Made by a program: the position numbers and the translations under genes
Part shown: positions 9,343 to 64,000 of the stretch, piece after piece
How positions within the stretch are numbered: position 1 is the stretch's first letter
How the letters are laid out: every line of letters starts with the position of its first letter
Origin: Nematostella vectensis
Taxonomy: Eukaryota
Reading direction: 5' to 3'
Assembly: GCF_932526225.1 (NCBI RefSeq)
Contig: NC_064047.1
Coordinates: 1,817,027-1,881,026 of the forward strand
DNA length: 64,000 nt
The notes under the pieces: generated by a model
What the model saw: the letters and a program-made list of their open reading frames with translations, nothing else
Databases searched by the model: none
What the model was told of the DNA's origin: nothing

Positions 9343-9596
9343 CTCGACTCCACAGGAAAGGGCTCGTACAGGAACTTCTTATAAAAATGCTTTTTGACGT
9401 CATGCACTAAGATAACCGCTTTTCCCTGGTCATCGTACTGCGGGCGCCCGGCTCGTCCCATCATCTGCAGTACGTCAGTAATGGGGAAATCCACGTAGCG
9501 GCATTTCTTGCCGTCAAAGTACTCCGTGCCCTTGATGACCACGAGGTGGGCGGGGAAGTTGACACCCCAAGCCAATGTACTGGTGGCGATCAGGAC
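9343..9596 (-). CDS. ASCC3: ASCC3 exon 27 ([84 protein letters not shown]-)
   Basis: The [11 protein letters not shown] and [10 protein letters not shown] motifs mark the second helicase C domain. Acceptor cctag| and donor AG|GTATGG. Confidence 0.9.
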
Positions 9597-9849
9597 CTAG
9601 CAGGGAGAGCGAATTGTGATCAGGAGTGTGTCAAAAGGCTACCAGAAAATCTGTTCACCGAAAATTTGTTTCCGACAACCTAGCTGTTTACACTGACGAC
9701 CTCCTTTGTTTTCCGACAAGTTTATCACACTTAAAAGATCAAATTTACTTTCATTTTAATTTGAGCAACTCATATTATATGGAAACCGTGATAGGCGAAT
9801 GAGTTGTTGGTTGATTGAAGCGAGTTGAGTAATCATTACGAGAGGATGA

Positions 9850-10220
9850 TTCCATAACGGACATAATAATCAGGATCACAATCATCATCATCACAATTTT
9901 CATCGTCATCACATCAATAATCATTTGTCATTATCACCACTCCTATCACCATCATCAGTACCATCATCATCACCACCGTCATCATGAATACCGCCATCGC
10001 CATCGTCAACACCATCAGCATCACCATTATCATCATCTTCACAACCATCATTATCATCTCAATCGTCACCATCATAAACGTTTACTATCAGCATCAGCAT
10101 CGCCATTATCATCATTTTCACAACCATCATTATCATCACCATCGTCACCTTCACCACCACCACCACCATGACCACCAACATTATCATCACCATCGTCACC
10201 ATCATGAACGTTGACTGTAA
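9850..10220. repeat. CAT/CAC/CGT-rich low-complexity tract in the ASCC3 intron
   Basis: Direct reading. The His-rich ORFs on both strands are artefacts. Confidence 0.85.
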
Positions 10221-10619: not shown

Positions 10620-11115
10620 CCTACTTCCTCTTCCTGCATGTCACGTCACGTGATAGTAACCTCCTTTTTTGGGCGGTCACGTCACACAGTACTTACCTCC
10701 TCTCCTCCATTTCCGCCAGGTGATGTATACCCTCTCTCCACCATTTGACGTCACGTGATGATTACCTTTTCTTCCGGTAAGTGATGTCACGTGATTTTTA
10801 CCTTCTCCCTCTGAAGGTGACGTCACGTGATGCTTACCTCTCCTTCCGGCATGAGACGTCACGTGATGCTTACCTCCTCCCTCTGAAGGTGACGCCACGT
10901 GATGCTTACCTCCTCTTCAGGCATGTGATTCTAAACTCTTCTTCAGGCATGAGACGTCACGTGATGCTTATCTTCACTTTCTTAATGTGACGTTACATGA
11001 TGCTCACCTCCTTTTCCGGTAAGTGGCGTCACGTGATTCCTACCTCTTCTTCCAGTATGCGGTGTCACGTGATTTTGACCTTCACCCTCTGCATGTGACG
11101 TCGCGTGATGCTCAC
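10620..11115. repeat. About 60-bp minisatellite (about 8 copies) whose unit is the ASCC3 exon-25 donor junction (minus strand GAGGAG|GTAAGCATCACGTGACGTC)
   Basis: Every unit carries an AG|GTAAGC consensus donor plus a CACGTG E-box and a TGACGTCA CRE-like palindrome. The array abuts the real donor at 11115/11116. Confidence 0.8.
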
Positions 11116-11379
11116 CTCCTCTTCAGGCATGTGCAGCCATTGCTTGGGGTCATCCTGGGCGGCCAGGAAGGCGATCAAGTCCAGGGCTGTTAGTCTGGTC
11201 TGTCTTCTGGACGAGACGAAGACGAGGGTGGGCTTGGTCGGAGAGTGAATCCGGATCGCCTCGAAAGTTGGCTTGTTCATAGTAGCCATACGAGGGCAGT
11301 AATGCTTGCCGGGAAATCCTGTGATGTGAACCTCAAGAGGAACAGGGCGAACTGAAGGTCGGAAGTTGAACATACCAGC
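11116..11379 (-). CDS. ASCC3: ASCC3 exon 25 ([88 protein letters not shown])
   Basis: The [16 protein letters not shown] motif is conserved. Acceptor tccccaag| and donor GAG|GTGAGC. Confidence 0.9.
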
Positions 11380-12419: not shown

Positions 12420-12746
12420 GTCGACCACAAAGATAACTAGTATGAGATCTGCCAGCTCTGACTGACGCTCAGCCCAACAAACCAGTTGCATACTAGTTTT
12501 ACAGGTTAAAGAATCTACCTCTTTAATAATAACCAGATTGACTTGTTTGACATAGCTAAGCGTCTGCCAGCTCTGACTGATCCCAGCCCGACAAGCCAGT
12601 TGCATACTAGTTTTACATGTTTAAATATCTACTTCGTCAATAGTGAGCAGATTGAATTGTTTGACATAGCTACGCGTCTGCCAGCTCTGACTGATCCCAG
12701 CCCGACAAACAAATTGCATACTAGTTTTACAGTTTTAAGTATCTAC
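12420..12746. repeat. 120-bp tandem pseudo-copies (about 3 copies) of the 3' end of ASCC3 exon 23 plus its donor (…SWQTRSYVKQVNLLIIDE|GTAGAT)
   Basis: The minus-strand copies read SWQTLSYVKQFNLLTIDE|GTAGAT and ...IIKE|GTAGAT. Confidence 0.8.
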
Positions 12747-12900
12747 CTCGTCAATAATAAGCAGATTGACTTGTTTGACGTAGCTACGCGTCTGCCAGCT
12801 TCGACTGATGCCGTCCCACTTCTCCGGTGTCGTCACGATGAGGTCAGCCTGGCTAATGGAACGCGAGTCTGGTGTGACGTCACCCGTCAGTTCTATCACC
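12747..12900 (-). CDS. ASCC3: ASCC3 exon 23 ([52 protein letters not shown])
   Basis: Acceptor ccgttgccag| and donor GAG|GTAGAT. The downstream intron carries 2-3 pseudo-copies of this exon's 3' end plus donor. Confidence 0.85.
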
Positions 12901-14399: not shown

Positions 14400-15154
14400 T
14401 TGCGTGATTTCAAGTTGTGTCGCGTGATGTCACGGCCGTCTTACGTGGCCATACGTATCTGTACGAGGATTGGGTGCGTGGCTAGCTTTGTTGCGTGACG
14501 CAATGGCGTTGTATTGCGTTATTCCAAGCAATGTTGCGTGACGTCACAATGCTGTATTACGCAACCATATGTTGCGTGACGCCATGGTGCTGTATTGCGT
14601 GATTTCAATTAATGTTGCGTGACGTCACGGTATAGTATGGAATCACGGGTGGCCCTCTCAACCCTGAATTTCACTTGTTGGACGTATGTGAGCTTACTAG
14701 AAGCTCGTGTTCCTCAGTTCCAAGATGGGTCATTATTAATACATTAGGATTTTAAATGTGAAGCGCTTAGAACATGGTTGATATAAGCGCTACATAAATG
14801 TCAATTGAATTAATTAATTTAATTATTACGCGACCATACAGTGCCTGTATCTGTACGGGGTTATGTTGCGTGACGCCATGGTGCTGTATTGCGATGATTT
14901 TTAGTAGTGTTGCGTGACGTCACGGTGCAGTATTGCGTGACAATACAGTACCTGCATCTGCACGGGGTAGTGTGCGTGACGCCACGGTGTAATGTTTGAA
15001 TTCAAGTAGTGTTGTGTGACGTCACGGTGTAGTATTACGTGACAATACAGTACCTGTATCTGCACGGGGTTGTGTTGCGTGACCTAATGTTGCAGCATCG
15101 CGTGATTTCAAGTAGCATTGCGTGACATCACGGTGTAGTATTACGTGACCATAC
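14400..15154. repeat. 60/120-bp minisatellite (about 6 copies) built from the ASCC3 exon-20 donor junction (minus strand AACCCCGTGCAGATACAG|GTACTGTATTGTCACG, i.e. …NPVQTQ|GT)
   Basis: Each unit repeats the last 18 nt of the exon plus a GTA donor and a TGACGTCA motif. The array abuts the real donor at 15154/15155. Confidence 0.8.
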
Positions 15155-20339: not shown

Positions 20340-20882
20340 CGCCGTGTTAGTGAAGTTGGCTGGTCCTTACCTCGATAGTATCGAACTCGATGTAGAAGTG
20401 ACTGGTCGTGTTATCAAGGTCGGCTGGTCCTTACCTCAATAGTATCGAACTCGATGTAGAAGTTTCTGGTCGTGTTATCGAGGTCGGCTGATCCTTACCT
20501 CAATAGTATTGAACTCGATGTAGAAGTTACTAGTTGTGTTATCAAGGTCGGCTGGTCCTAACCTTAATAGTATCGAACTCGATGTAGAAATTTCTGTTTG
20601 TGTTATCAAGGTCGGCTGGTCCTTACCTCAATAGTATCGAACTCGATGTAGAAGTGACTGGTCGTGTTATCGAGGTCGGCTGGTCCTTACCTCAATAGTA
20701 TCGAACTCGATGTAGAAGTAACTAGTCGTGCTATCGAGGTCAGCTGGTCCTTACCTCAATAGTATCGAACTCGATGTAGAAGTTACTAGTTGTGTTATCG
20801 AGGTCGGCTGGTTTTTACCTCATTGGTATCGTACTCGATATAGAAGTGACTGCTCGTGGTCTCAAGGTCGCCTGGTCCTTAC
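20340..20882. repeat. 60-bp minisatellite (about 9 copies) built from the ASCC3 exon-15 donor junction (minus strand …TTCTACATCGAGTTCGATACTATTGAG|GTAAGGACCAGC)
   Basis: Units read FYIEFDTIE|GTAAGG, against the real exon end FYIKYDTIE|GTAAGG. Confidence 0.85.
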
Positions 20883-21047
20883 CTCTATAGTATCGTACTT
20901 GATATAGAAGTGACTGGCCGTTCTACCGAGGTCGGTGGCTGACAAGTAGCCTTGCTCCTCTGCAAATCTGATCATACGGGCCTTGTCCAGTTTACGAGCA
21001 GTCGACACTATCAGCTGCCGTCTGTAATTCTCGAGTGTCGGGTCATC
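20883..21047 (-). CDS. ASCC3: ASCC3 exon 15 (DDPTLENYRRQLIVSTARKLDKARMIRFAEEQGYLSATDLGRTASHFYIKYDTIE)
   Basis: Acceptor ttttcaag| and donor GAG|GTAAGG. The real donor is the first in a ladder of about 10 tandem donor copies. Confidence 0.75.
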
Positions 21048-21818: not shown

Positions 21819-21938
21819 CTCTTTATCCTTGTGAGGAATTCCATAGACTAGAGGGTTCTTGATCATTCGTATGTACAGGTAAGAGTAGCTCAGCCATTCC
21901 ACCGCTTCGTTTACATTAGTAACAGTACCAAGACAAAT
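21819..21938 (-). CDS. ASCC3: ASCC3 exon 14 ([40 protein letters not shown])
   Basis: Start of the winged-helix/Sec63 region. Acceptor cttgtag| and a weak donor GAG|GTTCGT. Phase 0 on both sides. Confidence 0.6.
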
Positions 21939-22400
21939 CTACAAGACAATGTATTACTTGAATGCGGCCTAGAAAGTCAAGTCTGAAAAAAAGGGGTGAT
22001 CATGGGATGTATAATAATCGTGTAGGGTCGAATAGTTATTCCACCGCTTCGTTTACATTAGTAACAGTACCAAGACAAATCTACAAGACAATGTATTAGT
22101 TGAATGCGGCCTAGAAAGTCAAGTCTAAAAAAAAAGGTTGATCATGGGATGTATACTAATCGTGTAGGGTCGAATAGTTATTCCACCGCTTCGTTTACAT
22201 TAGTAACAGTACCAAGACAAATCTACAAGACAATGTATTAGTTGAATGCGGCCTAGAAAGTCAAGTCTGAAAAAGGGGTGATCATGGGATGTATACTAAT
22301 CGTGTAGGGTCGAATAGTTATTCCACCGCTTCGTTTACATCAGTAACAGTACCAAGACAAATCTACAAGACAATGTATTATTAGTTTGGTGCGGCCCAAA
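21939..22400. repeat. 120-bp tandem repeat (about 4 copies) built from the ASCC3 exon-14 acceptor junction (minus strand ttgtcttgtag|ATTTGTCTTGGTACTGTTACTAATGTAAACGAAGCGGTGGAA)
   Basis: Each unit contains the acceptor plus the first about 45 nt of the exon. Confidence 0.85.
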
Positions 22401-23789: not shown

Positions 23790-24560
23790 AAATAAATAAG
23801 TCCACTCCCTCGCAGCCTACAAAAACCACTCGAACTATACAAGGCGTCGAGGGTATACTTATTGTGATCGTTAACTCGCTGGCGCTCGCTGATTTCCTGA
23901 GCAAGACTTTTCGCGTCAAGAAGTCGACTTATCTTCTCGTCATCCTGGCCGTGGCGGATCTGATGGTCGGGCAAAGCCTTACCATGGACTCCCTCTCAAC
24001 ATTAACAAAAGGGGTTGGCGCCGAGGAAGCCCGTATTTCATTCTATGTTATGAAGGTTTCGGTGAACGCGTCGCTGTTCTCGTCCACCTTCATAGCAATA
24101 GAAAGATCCTACGCCGTCCTGGTACCCTTTAGACATCGCCTTCTTACAAGCAAGCCGTACGGCGTAGCGATAACCTTGGTCTGGGTCCTGGCAATCATAA
24201 CCGAATTGTATAATGTACTTTAAAGGTCATTCCATCAAATCTTGACAGAGAAGGGTAAAATACTCTCCACAGTCAAAACAGGCCTGGCCCTCATTTCGTT
24301 AAAAGTAAAGTTCAGTTGCTATCTCGCTACTTGGTGCAGGGTGAAGTTTACTGTAAATCCAACAGCAGGGAGAGACAGCTCGTGAAATACAAACAAACTA
24401 ACGCAAACTTTATTCGTTACAACATTGGTGTCGTTTCTGCTGTTCTTTCCGTTGGCAATTGGTATTTTGTAATATGAATGGTAGAGGTTAAGGTGTCCCT
24501 TCTCGTAAACTTAGCGTGTCTTATGTACTTTAACTCCGCCGTTAACGTTCTGGTGTACTC
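23790..24560 (+). pseudogene. Intronless class-A (rhodopsin-like) GPCR pseudogene fragment inside an ASCC3 intron
   Basis: TM2 LAVADLMVG, TM3 IAIERSYAVLVPFRHR (an E/DRY-type motif), TM6 FLLFFPLAIGIL and TM7 NSAVNVLVY (NPxxY with P replaced by V) are recognisable. TM6 and TM7 lie in different frames separated by in-frame stops. No TM5 was found, and the N-terminus is truncated by a stop. Confidence 0.55.
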
Positions 24561-27642: not shown

Positions 27643-27777
27643 CTGCTTGAGGGCGCTACCGTAGTCTGGGGCCTGCTCTGCCCTGAAGAGCATGGAGTCC
27701 CCCTGATTGGAAGCCATCTCTCTTAACGTCATGGCCGTCCGCACGGTGGCATTTCTAGCATGAACAAACACCATGAC
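27643..27777 (-). CDS. ASCC3: ASCC3 exon 11 (VMVFVHARNATVRTAMTLREMASNQGDSMLFRAEQAPDYGSALKQ)
   Basis: The VMVFVHARNATVRTA motif is conserved. Acceptor tctcttcag| and donor CAG|GTACTG. Confidence 0.85.
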
Positions 27778-27960
27778 CTGAAGAGACAAATAAATAATTA
27801 TAGAACGAACAAACACCATGACCTGAAGAGACAAATAATTCTAGCATGAACAAACACCCTGACCTGAAGAGACAAATAAATAATTATAGAACGAACAAAC
27901 ACCATGACCTGAAGAGACAAATAAATAATTATAGAACGAACAAACACAAACCTGAAAAGA
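27778..27960. repeat. 45-bp tandem repeat (about 4 copies) duplicating the ASCC3 exon-11 acceptor (minus strand ctataattatttatttgtctcttcag|GTCATGGTGTTTGTTC)
   Basis: Direct reading. Each unit has a full polypyrimidine-AG acceptor plus the first 16 exon nt. Confidence 0.85.
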
Positions 27961-28125
27961 TAAATGACTACGTAGATACCATTTTCGTAATCATCACTAC
28001 AATAATTATCATTATGATCACCGTCATCAAAATCGTTTTCTTGTATTCAGATCAGTATGTTTCCGGTATTTTCAGAACAATCACCGTCATGATGATCATC
28101 ATCGACGTGATCATGAACATTACCG

Positions 28126-28994: not shown

Positions 28995-29243
28995 CTGGTA
29001 GCCCTTCTCCACGTTTTCTGTGACCTTCTCATAGCAGATCTTATCCATCTCGTGCGCTTGCTGGAACGGGTTCAGCCCTTTCACCCCGATGAACGTCTGT
29101 CCGAGGGGGACTGGGCGAAAACGTGAGTCGAAGGCGAAAAGACCTTTGTACGGGTCCACCCTTAGGAAGTGTGCGACGTCCAGATAGTTAGGGAGAGTAG
29201 CAGACAGTCCGACAATGCGAATCATGGACTGCGAGGATAACAC
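28995..29243 (-). CDS. ASCC3: ASCC3 exon 10 (VLSSQSMIRIVGLSATLPNYLDVAHFLRVDPYKGLFAFDSRFRPVPLGQTFIGVKGLNPFQQAHEMDKICYEKVTENVEKGYQ)
   Basis: Helicase motif III (SAT) is present. Acceptor attgtag| and donor CAG|GTATAG. Confidence 0.85.
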
Positions 29244-30400
29244 CTACAATACATATTAAGATAAATTCCAACAGATGGTTAGGAAGAGTGGCAGATAGGC
29301 CGACAATGCAAATCCTAGACTGTGAGGACAAAACCTACAATACATATTAAGATAAATTCCAACAGACGGTTAGGGAGAGTGGCAGATAGGCCGACAATGC
29401 AAATCCTAGACTGTGAGGACAAAACCTACAATACATATTAAGATAAATTCCAACAGATGGTTAGGGAGAGTGGCAGATAGGCCGACAATGCAAATCCTAG
29501 ACTGTGAGGACAAAACCTACAATACATATTAAGATAAATTCCAACAGATGGTTAGGGAGAGTGGCAGATAGGCCGACAATGCAAATCCTAGACTGTGAGG
29601 ACAAAACCTACAATACATATTAAGATAAATTCCAACAGATGGTTAGGGAGAGTGGCAGATAGGCCGACAATGCAAATCCTAGACTGTGAGGACAAAACCT
29701 ACAATACATATTAAGATAAATTCCAACAGATGGTTAGGGAGAGTGGCAGATAGGCCGACAATGCAAATCCTAGACTGTGAGGACAAAACCTACAATACAT
29801 ATTAAGATAAATTCCAACAGATGGTTAGGGACAGTGGCAGATAGGCCGACAATGCAAATCCTAGACTGTGAGGACAAAACCTACAATACATATTAAGATA
29901 AATTCCAACAGATGGTTAGGGAGAGTGGCAGATAGGCCGACAATGCAAATCCTAGACTGTGAGGACAAAACCTACAATACATATTAAGATAAATTCCAAC
30001 AGATGGTTAGGGAGAGTGGCAGATAGGCCGACAATGCAAATCCTAGACTGTGAGGACAAAACCTACAATACATATTAAGATAAATTCCAACAGATGGTTA
30101 GGGAGAGTGGCAGATAGGCCGACAATGCAAATCCTAGACTGTGAGGACAAAACCTACAATACATATTAAGATAAATTCCAACAGATGGTTAGGGAGAGTG
30201 GCAGATAGGCCGACAATGCAAATCCTAGACTGTGAGGACAAAACCTACAATACATATTAAGATAAATTCCAACAGATGGTTAGGGACAGTGGCAGATAGG
30301 CCGACAATGCAAATCCTAGACTGTGAGGACAAAACCTACAATACATATTAAGATAAATTCCAACAGATGGTTAGGGAGAGTGGCAGATGGCCGACAAGGC
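29244..30400. repeat. 90-bp minisatellite (about 13 copies) built from the ASCC3 exon-10 acceptor junction (minus strand tatgtattgtag|GTTTTGTCCTCACAGTCTAGGATTTGCATTGTCGGCCTATCTGCCACTCTCCCTAACCATCTG)
   Basis: Unit = the last about 27 nt of the intron including the acceptor, plus about 63 nt homologous to the exon start (real: GTGTTATCCTCGCAGTCCATGATTCGCATTGTCGGACTGTCTGCTACTCTCCCTAACTATCTG). Confidence 0.85.
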
Positions 30401-30599
30401 AAATATTAAACATCCTCTGTCTTAGCCATTTTATCATCCTAGCAAAGCACCACTTTTATCGGCTAAATAAGGGGAATTAATGTCATATTTTAGATTGAAT
30501 TTGTTAAATAAAGAATCAAACTTTGTTTTTAGATGGCCTCTAGATGTCTTACTAACACATGAGAGATTAGCGAACAGCAAAACAAATAATGCAACGTCC

Positions 30600-30790
30600 T
30601 TGCTTAAAGCCTCAGGGATACTCGGGTTTTGCTCGGAAATGCCGATGATTTCCTGTTGTAACGTCCTCGCTATAAAAAGCCTCAGGGCTTTTCGGGATTT
30701 ACTCGGAAATGCCGATGATTACCTGTCGTAACGTCCTCGCTAAAAAGTCTCGGGACTAATCAGGGTTTACTCGGAAATGGCGATGATTAC
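30600..30790. repeat. 60-bp tandem copies (about 3 copies) of the ASCC3 exon-9 donor junction (minus strand GCGAGGACATTACGACAG|GTAATCATCGCCATTTCCGAG)
   Basis: Direct reading. One copy has its donor mutated to GAAATC. Confidence 0.8.
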
Positions 30791-30955
30791 CTGTCGTAAT
30801 GTCCTCGCCACAAGGCACTCAATGACGGAGCCACGGTCATCATGCAGCAAATGAACCTCGTCAATGATGAGTAGCTTGACAAGCTGAGCCAGCGCTACAT
30901 CTCCAGTGGACTTACGTGTGACAACATCCCACTTTTCCGGGGTAGTGACAAGCAT
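30791..30955 (-). CDS. ASCC3: ASCC3 exon 9, containing the DEVH box ([55 protein letters not shown])
   Basis: The DEVH motif and a TTPEKWD motif are present. Acceptor tgtcgcag| and donor CAG|GTAATC. Confidence 0.85.
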
Positions 30956-33339: not shown

Positions 33340-33436
33340 CTTAGATCCTGCCACAAAGCTGGCTCCCATCTGTCTCTCTAACATGGTGTCATATACGTGG
33401 GGGTACCTCTCAACTGGGCGCACTAGCCGTGGTCTG
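33340..33436 (-). CDS. ASCC3: ASCC3 exon 5 (S RPRLVRPVERYPHVYDTMLERQMGASFVAGSK), with a tandem NAGNAG acceptor (tag|tag|CAGACC)
   Basis: Donor AAG|GTAAAG. Either AG of the NAGNAG pair keeps the reading frame. Confidence 0.55.
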
Positions 33437-59047: not shown

Positions 59048-61339
59048 GTAAGAGAAGTGGATTATAGGGAGCTTGAAGCTCGAATCTGGGTTCCACTCTT
59101 TGTGCCTGGGGCTATATTGTGTATGTTTGTGGTGATTTTTATTTCGTACATCCAGTACATAGAATGAAGTGATGGCAGAAAGTGTCGAAAATGTGGGGAT
59201 GAACATGGTGGGTGGGTGCTAGTGAAAAAAAGTCAGGATTTCCATGATAGCGACAGTGGATGGGGAAAACTGAAACGTTTGTAATAATTAGGGTAGTGAG
59301 AATATAAAGAATATGCTTCGTATGTACGTGACGATCTAACTTATCTAGAAACATCTCTGAAATTGTTTATAAACCTCTAGATCAAGAATTAATTAAATGC
59401 GTGTTTTGTTTTGTAATAGCACTAAAAAGAAAAATAAACAATTTTGTGAAGATCATCAATTTCAAGCCATAGTGTGATGGACAAGAACTTAAAAGCAACA
59501 CATCATCTTTTGTTTCAAAGCAGACGTAAAAATGACTATTTCTCTACTTCGGCTTATTTTAGACCTTTTGATACGTTTGGTAAGCTGGGGTCTGATAGAC
59601 ACACCTTTAGAAATGTTCCCGAAGAGAAGACAGAAATGTGATATGCCATTTGCCTTTAAAAGACCTATCATTCGTTTTGAAACATGAGGTGGGGAGGAGG
59701 GCTGATTAACACTCTTTAATAAACAAAAACAGGTATCAAGCAGATGCTTGTCAATGTACACTTACTCATTCCCTGTTTGGGTTGAGAGCGTAAAATTCAA
59801 TTAAAACCAGGAAGCTTAGCCCAAGTGTGCCCCCTTATGGTAATGTCAGCAGTCAAGATAGGGGCTACTAGGTTACGCTCGGACAGACAAAACAAAAAGA
59901 ATGGAGCAATTAATAAGTTTTTAACTCTTTAACCGATAAAAGGTCAGAGGTGAGCTCGAGCTTGTAGAGATATTTATTTTATTTTGAGGCATCGAGGGAG
60001 TAGTACGGATGATGGTCTACACTGTGTGGAAACCCCAAAAACAGTGAAGATAAAGAAAAGAAGAAAAAAAGCCGGGAATAGTTAAATGCAAACCGTTGAA
60101 AAATATCAATTGGAATAAAGCCGCTCAAAAAAAAATCTAGCTTAGAATATAACTCGATTCACAGACCCATTTGCCCCTTAAGCTTTTTTTTTTGGCAATA
60201 TAGTAATTCCTAGAAATGCCATATTTGCCATATTCGCGTGACCATTGAAGGGAGTTGGATATAGCAGCAACTGGATCATAAACAATCCAAGTGTCACAGC
60301 CAGGACAGAGCAGAAAAACTTGCACGAAACACGATTAAGCATTCTATTAGTGTCTTACATTCAGTTTTGCATAAATTCATTCTGATATTGCATAAATGAT
60401 CCACGATATGAAGTCCAACGGCTTGCTTAGTAACAGCCTCTGGCATAGCCTCTGAGAGAACAATCTTGTCTAGTTCTTCGTTACGTCATTTCCTGTTTAC
60501 GATTGCGTAGGCGTGCCCAGTTCTCCTCCGGTCTGCCCCAAGGATGATGGTCGACGAAACGGCTTGAAGACATTTGGAAGTCATCAAGCCTCTGTTAGCG
60601 GTTGAATATCCTAAACGGCACTAAAATCCTTCCTCTGCTCAATACCTTTTCTTTCGCTGTGTGTATCATTTCTTATTTGTTCAAACTACAAGCGCATCTC
60701 AATGTTCCTTTTTTAAAGTTTATTGGATTACGTCATCGTGTGGTAAAAAATTTGCCTTTCAGATATTCGAAACCTGGCTTTTAATGTTTTAAAAACATGT
60801 TTGATGAGTCCAAGAAGAAATGGTTAAATGTTAACTCAAAAGAAGAGCTACGTCTTTTTTCGTGACGTGCTGACCCTATTAGTAAGCATTGTTGTATGTA
60901 TATGCGCCATTTGGAAAGAGTTAGTGATGCCGGCATATTTACAGCCTTTGAAAGGCCCCGTTAGGGGCTTAACCAGACAAGCTCATCTATCATATAGCGA
61001 TTTGTACGTCTCATTACATGAATTACGCTCATTTAGTTTAAACCTTTCGGCGTCGGCCTTTTGGTCAGTTTAAACTACCGAAGACGGTTATTACAGCAAT
61101 TAGTAACCCAAAAAGCCGCAGATTGGAGCAGATAGTTCCACATGGATGTATTTTGTTTCCTTTTTTGAGAGTGATTACACTCTAATAAATAGCATATTTC
61201 TAGTTACAGGGGCGTTTAAGGGTCAATGGGTAAGAGGTAGTGAAAGGCAGTGTGGGGGGACTTCATGTAAGATGGTTTGACCATTTAGTCGTTCGGTATT
61301 TGAGCAAATGTGTGATAATTCTGTTAATGCTTGAGGGTG

Positions 61340-62132
61340 CATTTTTGCCGCCATTTGTTCTGACACCTCTGTTACCATGTTTGCAAGCGCATGTTTCCCG
61401 CCATTTGTTCTGACACCGCTGTTTTCTGTTTGCAGGCGCATGTTACCTGCCATTTGTTCTTGTACCGCTGTTTTCATGTTTGCAGGCTCATGTTTCCCGC
61501 TATTTGTTATGAAACCGCTGTTTTCATGTTTGCAAGCGCATGTTTCCCACCTTTGTTCTGACACCGCTGTTTTCATGTTTGCAGGCGCATGTTTTCCTCC
61601 ATATGTTTGATACCGCTGTTATCATGTTTGCAGGCGCATGTTTCCCGCCATTTGTTCTGATACCACTGTTTTCATTTTTGCAAGCGCAAGTTTCCCAAAA
61701 TTTGTTCTTATACCGCTGTTATCATGTTTGCAGGCGCATGTTTGCTGCCATTTGTTCTGACACCGCTGTTTTCAAGTTTGCAGGCGCATGTTTCCCGCCT
61801 TTGTTCTGACACCACTGTTATCATGTTTGCAGGCGCATGTTTCCCGCTATTTGTTCTGACACCGCTGTTTTCATGTTTGCAGGCGCATGTTTTCCACCAT
61901 TTGTTATGACACCGCTGTTTTCATGTTTGCAAGCGCATGTTTCCCGCTATTTGTTCTGACACCGCTGTTTTCATGTTTGCAGGCGCATGTTTTCCACCAT
62001 TTGTTCTGACACCACTGTTATCATGTTTGCAGGCGCATGTTTCCCGCTATTTGTTCTGACACCGCTGTTTTCATGTTTGCAGGCGCATGTTTTCCACCAT
62101 TTGTTATGACACCGCTGTTATCATGTTTGCAG
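61340..62132. repeat. 50-bp minisatellite (about 15 copies) built from the TBX20 exon-3 acceptor junction (unit GCGCATGTTTCCCGCCATTTGTTCTGACACCGCTGTTTTCATGTTTGCAG)
   Basis: Each unit ends in the acceptor tcatgtttgcag| and restarts with the first 19 nt of exon 3 (GCGCATGTTTCCCGCCATT). The last unit is the real acceptor and exon. Confidence 0.9.
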
Positions 62133-62249
62133 GCGCATGTTTCCCGCCATTCGCGTGAAGGTGTCTGGTTTGGATCCCCATGCGCACTACATACTAGTGA
62201 TGGATGTAATACCGCTGGACGGCAAACGCTACAGATACGCATATCATAG
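62133..62249 (+). CDS. TBX20: TBX20 exon 3 ([39 protein letters not shown]-)
   Basis: RMFP...VSGLDP...[12 protein letters not shown] is the TBX20 signature. Acceptor tgtttgcag| and donor AG|GTAAGT. Confidence 0.9.
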
Positions 62250-62279
62250 GTAAGTTCCTAAGGGCAGTCGTCACACTGC

Positions 62280-62525
62280 AGGGCCGTAGCCAGCAAAAGC
62301 CACGTGAGGCATTCGCCTCGGTAAAATTTTGATGTTTAGTGTTTCACAATTGAAAAGTATGAGATAAAATACCTGCTTTTGTTGGATTTATCATCCAGTG
62401 GGTAGCTTTGCCTCGGTAAAATTTTGATGTTTAGTGTTTCACAATTGAAAAGTATGAGATAAAGTACCTGCTTTTGTTGGATTTATCATCCAGTGGGTAG
62501 CTTTGCCTCGGTAAAATTTTTATTC
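62280..62525. repeat. 120-bp tandem duplication (2 copies: gcctcggtaaaattttgatgtttagtgtttcacaattgaaaagtatgagataaa…) just 3' of TBX20 exon 3
   Basis: Direct reading. Confidence 0.8.
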
Positions 62526-62653
62526 TGGCTACAGGCCTGCTCTGCGATGCATGTTCTGCACGGAAGCAGCTTCTTGGCACAAAATGAATAATTTTACTTG
62601 GTGGTTTCCGTGGTGTTCGGCATTACTTAAATCCACCTCTTGGTTTATGCCAG

Positions 62654-62810
62654 TTCCAAGTGGGTGGTAGCGGGGAATGCAGACGCTCCTATGCCCGGGC
62701 GGGTCTATATTCACCCGGACTCTCCGGCTCTTGGGGAGGAATGGATGAGACAGATCGTGTCATTCGATAAAGTCAAGTTGACCAATAACGAGCTGGACCA
62801 ACAAGGACAT
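62654..62810 (+). CDS. TBX20: TBX20 exon 4 ([54 protein letters not shown])
   Basis: [18 protein letters not shown] matches the TBX20 sequence [18 protein letters not shown]. Acceptor tgccag| and donor CAT|GTGAGT. Confidence 0.9.
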
Positions 62811-62869
62811 GTGAGTGTTCATTGATAGCTAGGCATGATGTCCGCATGACAATATATGCTGATGCTGAT

Positions 62870-63600
62870 GCTGCTGCTGCTGCTGCTGATAATGGTGGTG
62901 GTGGTGATGGTGGTGGTGGTGGTGGTGGTGGTGGTGGTGGTGGTGGTGGTGGTGGTGGTGGTGGTGGTGGTGGTGGTGGTGGTGGTGGTGGTGGTGGTGG
63001 TGGCGATGGCGATGGCGATGGCGATGGCGATGGCGATGGCGATGGCGATGGCGATGGCGATGGCGATGGCGATGGCGATGGCGATGGCGATGGCGATGGC
63101 GATGGCGATGGCGATGGCGATGGCGATGGCGATGGCGATGGCGATGGCGATGGCGATGGCGATGGCGATGGCGATGGCGATGGCGATGGCGATGGCGATG
63201 GCGATGGCGATGGCGATGGCGATGGCGATGGCGATGGCGATGGCGATGGCGATGGCGATGGCGATGGCGATGGCGATGGCGATGGCGATGGCGATGGCGA
63301 TGGCGATGGCGATGGCGATGGCGATGGCGATGGCGATGGCGATGGCGATGGCGATGGCGATGGCGGTGGCGGTGGCGATGGCGATGGCGATGGCGATGGC
63401 GATGGCGATGGCGATGGCGATGGCGATGGCGATGGCGATGGCGATGGCGATGGCGATGGCGATGGCGATGGCGATGGCGATGGCGATGGCGATGGCGATG
63501 GCGATGGCGATGGCGATGGCGATGGTGATTGTGATGGTGATGGTGATGGTGATGGTGATGGTGGTCATGTTGTTGATGATGATGATAATGATGATGATGA
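62870..63600. repeat. Compound microsatellite (GCT)n-(GGT)n-(GGCGAT)n-(GGTGAT)n-(GAT)n, about 730 bp, in TBX20 intron 4
   Basis: Direct reading. All four long six-frame ORFs here are artefacts. Confidence 0.95.
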
Positions 63601-63622
63601 TATGCTTTTTCTTTGCAAATAG

Positions 63623-63787
63623 ATAATCCTCCACTCAATGCACAAGTACCAGCCACGGATTCACATCATCAGAAAGAAAGACACGAGCGAAGCCAGTATT
63701 GACATCGATCGACCTTGCTCGGAGAGGAAAACCTTTACATTTTCCGAAACCATCTTTACCACCGTCACCGCCTACCAAAATCAACAG
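63623..63787 (+). CDS. TBX20: TBX20 exon 5 ([55 protein letters not shown]); the gene continues beyond the window
   Basis: The MHKYQPR.HII.KKD and TAVTAYQNQ motifs are present. Acceptor caaatag| and donor CAG|GTAACT. Confidence 0.9.
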
Positions 63788-63960
63788 GTAACTTTGACAA
63801 CATCTACCATATAAAAAATCTGCACCATCGCCAAATATCTAATATGTATTTATCACCTTCACCGCCTATCAGAATTAACAGGTAACCATGACAATATAGT
63901 CACAGAAATAAACTTTACCACTGTCACCGCCTATCAAAACAAAAGTGGCAACATTGTTGT
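63788..63960. repeat. Degenerate tandem copies of the TBX20 exon-5 3' end plus donor (real ACCACCGTCACCGCCTACCAAAATCAACAG|GTAACT; copies CACCTTCACCGCCTATCAGAATTAACAG|GTAACC and ACCACTGTCACCGCCTATCAAAACAAAAGTGG)
   Basis: Direct reading. The array extends to the window edge. Confidence 0.7.
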
Positions 63961-64000
63961 TTTCCATTCATTTTGATGTGGTGAGGAAATCTCCAAATAA

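Follow-up and report, generated by a model that had tools for sequence, protein, structure and literature searches.

Tandem repeats that span exon-intron boundaries are best known from amphioxus, where they are called 'mirages' and have been described in Adh3, troponin C, the globins BflGb6 and BflGb9, and PGBD5. Amphioxus mirages affect 5' as well as 3' boundaries, differ in copy number, in many cases retain the AG or GT dinucleotide, and reportedly leave splicing undisturbed; degenerate mirage remnants have been noted in amphioxus introns (PMC3087553, PMC3902484). In human F7, the first unit of a 37-bp VNTR in intron 7 spans the exon 7 donor; using 50 constructs, Borensztajn et al. (2006) showed that the pseudo-sites, which are identical to the authentic site, are competent but silent, with the most upstream site selected (PMC1557585). 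Tandem duplication of AGGT-containing segments has also been invoked for intron gain or sliding, in the Rogers model, by Hellsten et al. 2011 (PMC3265369), and in Drosophila (PMC2891723). Among open-access papers and preprints we found no report of mirages in Nematostella or any cnidarian, which counts as weak evidence that none has been described.

Here, we examine tandem copies of a donor junction in a T-box gene of Nematostella vectensis, which lies at the end of a 64,000-nucleotide stretch of DNA that we refer to as the window. Five + strand exons splice into a 251-aa N-terminal protein with a Pfam T-box match (E 1.2e-66):

57722-57848, + strand, exon 1 of the T-box gene (spliced model)
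58861-59047, + strand, exon 2 (spliced model)
62133-62249, + strand, exon 3 (spliced model)
62654-62810, + strand, exon 4 (spliced model)
63623-63787, + strand, exon 5, the fifth coding exon of the TBX15-like gene, ending ...TVTAYQNQQ (model translation and match to XP_048578081.1)

The initial annotation had labeled this gene TBX20, and that label is wrong. The protein encoded by exons 1-5 is 100% identical to the N. vectensis 'T-box transcription factor TBX15' (isoform X2, XP_048578081.1; isoform X1, XP_032219494.2), and vertebrate TBX15/18 proteins (E about 1e-85 to 1e-81, 71-72% over the T-domain) outrank TBX20 (E about 1e-77 or weaker), with cnidarian TBX20 proteins only ~50% identical to the window protein. 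On these matches the gene is best classed as TBX15-like, of the Tbx15/18/22 type. The same annotation had correctly placed the end of exon 5 at ...TAYQNQQ, with the donor CAG|GTAACT at 63787/63788, and splicing from 63787 to exon 6 reproduces XP_048578081.1 (...TAYQNQQ|ITRLK...).

Downstream of this donor, a repeat finder applied to 63600-64000 detects one direct-repeat family, with three head-to-tail members:

63755-63803, + strand, reference copy: last 33 nt of exon 5, donor CAG|GTAACT and 16 nt of intron
63849-63897, + strand, copy 1 core: 41/49 identical (84%) to the reference, gap-free, CAG|GTAACC kept
63914-63962, + strand, copy 2 core: 61% identical ungapped, 84% in a gapped alignment from 63905

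Two diverged copies of the exon 5 end past the donor, one with CAG|GTAACC, had been proposed from the letters alone, and the alignments bear this out. In local alignment to the reference, copy 1 scores 58 and copy 2 scores 48 (37 matching and 4 mismatching columns). When the whole intron was shuffled 1000 times with dinucleotides preserved, the best score averaged 17.2 +/- 2.4 and never exceeded 30. A 23-nt core motif, searched with <=3 mismatches, occurs at just three sites in 64 kb, all of them in the exon 5 array, with 0 expected. Wider alignment, the shuffle null and the motif search together reject chance similarity, the doubt that the initial annotation had itself raised, and we take the copies as confirmed, genuine duplicates. 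That they might instead be chance matches, an assembly artifact, or a fragment of a dispersed repeat or transposon has the short length of the copies in its favor and nothing else, and is exceedingly improbable given these scores, the restriction of the motif to three sites, and the agreement of two independent assemblies described below. A dispersed repeat or transposon fragment is further rejected by the lack of terminal repeats flanking the copies; the sole inverted repeat in the region is a 12-nt pair, 83% complementary, inside copy 2, and an Rfam scan of the window returned zero matches.

The span that the copies share runs from the final 33-42 nt of the exon across the donor and into the intron for at least 16 nt, and the copies lie in direct orientation with start-to-start spacings of 94 and 65 nt and nothing between units. 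Homology to copy 2 begins at 63746 (GAAA...), which marks the start of unit 1, and copy 1 lies 94 nt on, start to start. The authentic exon 5 junction is the terminal unit of the array, with unit 1 continuous with exon 5:

63746-63839, + strand, unit 1, authentic junction, ~94 nt: last 42 nt of exon 5, donor, first 52 nt of intron 5
63840-63904, + strand, unit 2 (copy 1), 65 nt: core 63849-63897, exon part reading FITFTAYQN* with a stop codon
63905-64000, + strand, unit 3 (copy 2), about 100 nt: core 63905-63962, exon part still reading FTTVTAYQN

Judged by an older assembly, unit 3 ends ~4 nt past the end of the window. Units 1 and 3 have similar tails: ATCGCCAAATATCTAA (63827-63842) in unit 1 and ATCTCCAAATAACTAA in unit 3 sit at equal distances from the unit start and agree at 14/16 positions (P about 0.02). 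This points to an ancestral unit length of about 94-100 nt, with ~30 nt since deleted from unit 2. The exon-derived part of copy 1 carries 5/33 mismatches and a TAA stop codon, counted from the alignment. In copy 2, the two changes specific to its own lineage in the first 27 nt are both synonymous and in third positions, with the frame lost right after; these could hint at constraint, with a chance probability that we roughly estimate at about 0.06.

It had also been suggested that the array may continue past the end of the window, and the downstream sequence refutes this. We reached that sequence via the partial protein EDO46665.1 in locus L001 (DS469525.1) of the 2007 assembly GCA_000209225.1, which aligns to window positions 54370-64000 at about 98% identity (window 64000 = L001 9786). 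In L001, intron 5 occupies 9573-10000 (428 nt) with exon 6 from 10001, and beyond the three units the intron is free of copies: its best extra match scores 17, equal to the shuffle mean. A very degenerate fourth copy at L001 about 9815 (tttaccaaattcac...) was considered and rejected on that score. The array thus consists of exactly three units and ends within intron 5. The same three units are present in L001 with one SNP, in copy 1, and since the two independent assemblies differ by SNPs here and share the three-unit structure, the array is neither an assembly artifact nor recently unstable.

The older assembly differs from the window elsewhere in the T-box gene. Intron 4 (62811-63622) is almost all microsatellite, with (TGC)n, (TGG)37 and (TGGCGA)93 followed by a mixed TGA/TGG tail, and is 812 nt long in the window vs 308 nt, with (ATGGTG)n, in the older assembly. 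At L001 8019-8099 (window about 62150-62190), 40 nt of coding exon 3 are tandemly duplicated, with two inter-copy mismatches. The window lacks this duplication, which would cause a frameshift and represents either a haplotype mis-join in the older assembly or a real null allele.

To compare splice-site strength across the array, we used a donor matrix built from the real donors mapped in the window (38 in all, mean 7.7 +/- 2.4 bits), with the authentic exon 5 site scored on the other donors:

63785-63793, + strand, authentic 5' splice site CAG|GTAACT, 9.48 bits
63879-63887, + strand, pseudo-donor CAG|GTAACC in copy 1, 8.74 bits, 94 nt downstream of the authentic site
63943-63951, + strand, destroyed donor AAG|TGGCAA in copy 2, -6.9 bits

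The copy 1 site differs from the authentic one at +6 (GTAACC vs GTAACT), lies at the 99.2nd percentile of all + strand GT sites, and exceeds the mean of the window's real donors. In copy 2 the donor was lost because of a 7-nt deletion, seen as an alignment gap that takes out GTAACTT. Reading through from exon 5, a TAA is reached after 8 codons; a transcript spliced at the copy 1 pseudo-donor would thus be 94 nt longer and encode a truncated protein, which is also what retention of the intron would yield. A functional alternative 5' splice site in copy 1, acting through NMD down-regulation or producing a T-domain-truncated protein, would fit the strength of the site, its position just 94 nt from the authentic donor, and its intact state in both N. 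vectensis assemblies. We nevertheless consider such a role unlikely: the coral ortholog has no equivalent, the donor of the sister copy has been lost, the exon part of copy 1 is decaying through its mismatches and stop codon, and the NCBI isoforms X1 and X2 of the TBX15-like protein differ only at the N-terminus. The same architecture recurs at nine other junctions, including those of the unrelated gene ASCC3, which suggests a mutational process that acts generally, not a device specific to one gene, and the equally good pseudo-sites of F7 stay silent (PMC1557585). From annotation and homology, we infer that the authentic exon 5 donor is the one used; the copy 1 pseudo-donor is presumably silent. 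We also considered the copies as an alternative or mutually exclusive exon, and rejected this because no AG that could serve as an acceptor lies between the authentic donor and copy 1, which in addition has a stop codon.

In the Montipora capricornis ortholog (L003), intron 5 lies at the same codon (…YQNQQ|GTACGA) and contains no exon-end copies (best score 18, null 18.4); the 13.5-kb Montipora T-box locus as a whole contains no minisatellites. ASCC3 of Actinia tenebrosa spans 18 kb vs 35 kb in N. vectensis and has few small arrays, none of which overlaps the 24 tblastn exon matches, which cover part of the exons. From these comparisons, the junction duplications look lineage-specific rather than like conserved elements.

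Junction arrays are common in the window. Guided by the N. vectensis protein P0243 and the Actinia ortholog P0244, we mapped 34 coding exons of the ASCC3 helicase gene on the minus strand, in a clean 2192-codon frame. TRF finds 22 minisatellite loci (period >=12) inside ASCC3 and 3 inside the T-box gene, and in 9 of these loci the unit contains an exon edge and splice site, with the real junction as the terminal unit. The nine sister arrays comprise eight in ASCC3, five at donors and three at acceptors, and one at the acceptor of TBX exon 3:

30593-30808, minus strand, ASCC3 exon 9 donor array, 68 nt x 3.2
20343-20935, minus strand, ASCC3 exon 15 donor array, 64 nt x 9.3
14824-15154, minus strand, ASCC3 exon 20 donor array, 102 nt x 3.2 (exon origin z = 6.4)
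12448-12809, minus strand, ASCC3 exon 23 donor array, 114 nt x 3.2
10746-11133, minus strand, ASCC3 exon 25 donor array, 36 nt, about 9 copies
29181-30404, minus strand, ASCC3 exon 10 acceptor array, 91 nt x 13.5
27753-27965, minus strand, ASCC3 exon 11 acceptor array, 45 nt x 4.7
21896-22380, minus strand, ASCC3 exon 14 acceptor array, 142 nt x 3.4
61339-62151, + strand, TBX exon 3 acceptor array, 50 nt x 16.3

Most pseudo-sites in these arrays retain GT or AG; the count is 12/12 among the full-length copies of the ASCC3 exon 10 array and 12/16 in that of TBX exon 3. We also tested for exon-derived sequence in 12 junction-proximal arrays that TRF put outside exons, and 11 had none; the sole exception is the array at the ASCC3 exon 20 donor. 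In all, 10 of the 75 modeled junctions (66 in ASCC3 and 9 in the T-box gene) carry such an array. The proposal that the exon 5 copies arose by the same junction-duplication process as other arrays here is therefore supported by nine window arrays built from exon edge, splice site and intron edge.

Our ASCC3 model departs from the old JGI model P0243 at exon 4, where the JGI model reads through the donor (…AAQRYLIVQNGQ…; 33944-34147 and 33340-33493, minus strand) and Actinia homology favors a junction at 34005/33493 (…AAQRESALHLAS…). Nested in the 4.2-kb intron 12 of ASCC3, on the opposite strand, is an ORF with a rhodopsin-family 7TM match (23792-24220, + strand; PF00001, E 8e-11). Between ASCC3 and the T-box gene, 44200-47660 (+ strand) encodes a matrixin (Peptidase_M10) with a C-terminal ShK domain exon, and the acceptor of that exon is preceded, at a distance of 23 nt, by the end of a 28-nt x 16 array. 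The sequence downstream of the matrixin gene (47079-51585) is occupied for about 4 kb by C-rich arrays, of 44-nt and 69-nt units, whose GC skew is strongly negative.

The annotation had further described the exon 5 array as an older, decaying version of this process, and the two halves of that description fare differently. Decay is evident from indels, low copy number and a dead site: indel erosion has left unequal units of 94, 65 and about 100 nt, the alignable core has shrunk to 49-52 nt out of about 94, and the array has two extra copies only, one with a dead donor. Greater age is not borne out by substitutions, as the mismatch to the authentic copy (16.2%) is level with that of the ASCC3 exon 15 (17.0%) and exon 25 (16.1%) arrays. 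The ASCC3 exon 9 array comes close at 13.6%; the other values are 11.5% for ASCC3 exons 10 and 23, 7.9% for TBX exon 3, 7.7% for ASCC3 exon 11, and 2.3% for exon 14, which places the exon 5 array at the old end of the range and not beyond it. The exon 5 copies themselves offer only 41-49 alignable sites, too few to rank them by age. In the ASCC3 exon 10 array, copies are 98% alike mutually and only 88-89% like the authentic junction, indicating that the founding duplication is old and that a unit already diverged was amplified recently; founding and amplification are thus separable events.

Homogeneous arrays vary in copy number between the two assemblies, as minisatellites do. Compared to the window, the older assembly is 5 units shorter in the ASCC3 exon 10 acceptor array, 15 units shorter in a 35-nt array and 1 unit longer in a 21-nt array; the TBX exon 3 acceptor array has 13.3 copies there and 16.3 in the window. 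A 95-nt repeat in TBX intron 3 (62315-62520), which begins 66 nt past the exon 3 donor and is not exon-derived, has 2.2 copies in the window vs 6.2 in the older assembly, where its copies are 99% identical. Some of these differences could reflect collapse in the older Sanger assembly. Diverged arrays show no copy-number difference between assemblies, and the exon 5 array is among them, with three units in each. Because loss of instability is expected once units diverge, we regard the exon 5 array as a decayed member of this class rather than a non-member.

These divergence data also bear on whether the copies serve as intronic splicing signals under selection, with a U1 snRNP decoy or enhancer, or duplicated exonic enhancers, helping to define exon 5. 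Their position <=175 nt from the authentic donor would suit such a role, as would the near-consensus U1 complementarity of one copy (7/9 matches to CAGGTAAGT). The ~16% divergence of the copies is however that of plainly redundant multi-copy arrays nearby, one of the two sites has been deleted, Montipora lacks the copies, and neither enrichment nor conservation supports constraint, making this role very improbable.

We instead propose, with a probability of roughly 85%, that the exon 5 copies are a neutral relic of slippage or unequal-exchange duplication across the donor junction, in which the authentic site is used and the pseudo-sites are tolerated. An ancestral unit of ~94 nt, in which some 42 nt from the end of the exon and some 52 nt from the start of the intron flanked the 5' splice site, would have been tripled head-to-tail, most likely by replication slippage or unequal exchange, as suggested by the tandem geometry and the local abundance of minisatellites. 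Selection would hold only the exon-contiguous unit, leaving the two downstream units to drift as presumably neutral intronic pseudo-junctions: unit 2 would have lost ~30 nt of its tail and kept a strong pseudo-donor, and unit 3 would have lost its donor to the 7-nt deletion. The upstream-most donor may be chosen by exon definition or by 5'->3' selection, by analogy with the choice demonstrated for the F7 intron 7 VNTR (PMC1557585), and any use of the pseudo-donor would probably yield an unproductive transcript with a 94-nt insert and an early stop.

Beyond this single array, junctions appear to be favored sites for such repeats. In a placement model in which arrays are collapsed to one unit and distributed uniformly among wholly intronic or single-junction-spanning placements, 10/26 arrays in ASCC3 (3954-38921) and the T-box gene (57722-64000) span a junction vs 2.45 expected (P = 1.8e-5). 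Leaving out the exon 5 array gives 9/25 (P = 6.8e-5), and under other choices of minimum overlap and permitted placements the expectation lies at 1.7-3.1, with P <= 2.4e-4; several other arrays end 1-50 nt from a junction. The expectation hinges on intron lengths at the time of duplication and would be higher if ancestral introns were shorter, and this apparent excess of about four-fold, drawn from one window and two genes, is a lead rather than a result. We tentatively raise the possibility, which we consider more doubtful than probable, that tandem duplication in Nematostella is preferentially seeded at exon-intron junctions by a general process common to cnidarians and cephalochordates. The cause could be a hotspot for breaks or replication stalling tied to exon chromatin, methylation or co-transcriptional splicing. 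If such seeding occurs, mirages would be products of a junction-targeted process rather than a random subset of intronic minisatellites, and the exon 5 copies would be an end-stage, with relics of this kind recording intron growth and the silencing or removal of surplus splice sites. If the four-fold excess holds genome-wide, it would point to an unrecognized mutagenic link between exon boundaries and tandem duplication, and a route of intron growth.

Taken alone, the exon 5 array is a small evolutionary scar that probably has no function, and its value lies in its context. The array and its sisters add a cnidarian, with a dense population of junction-spanning minisatellites, to amphioxus and the one human gene for which such repeats have so far been reported. 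Each junction array sets up to 16 good surplus splice sites beside the authentic one, thereby providing natural experiments on splice-site choice, and decayed arrays show the aftermath, with one exon 5 pseudo-site removed by a small deletion and the other still intact.

Among known systems, AGGT-duplication intron gain resembles the exon 5 array in that a short tandem genomic duplication yields extra splice signals beside a coding segment. In those cases, however, an exon-internal duplication gives rise to a new or shifted intron, whereas here a pre-existing junction was duplicated at an intron position that is ancestral, being common to Montipora, with no new intron or shift. As in the F7 VNTR, the authentic donor precedes tandem pseudo-5' sites; unlike those of F7, the exon 5 pseudo-sites are not identical to it, one differing at +6 and the other destroyed. 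The closest parallel is the amphioxus mirage, with which the exon 5 array shares a tandem arrangement, a unit that spans the junction, and one terminal unit that is authentic; amphioxus units of tens to about 160 nt are also comparable in size to the 36-142 nt units of the window arrays. Amphioxus mirages are mostly 81-100% identical and copy-number polymorphic, whereas the exon 5 array has two extra copies at about 84% identity over 49-52 nt, units that differ in length, and no structural difference between the assemblies. Of tandem arrangement, junction-spanning unit, authentic terminal unit and copy-number polymorphism, it lacks only the last, as expected of an array that has decayed, and in structure the exon 5 array is a decayed mirage.
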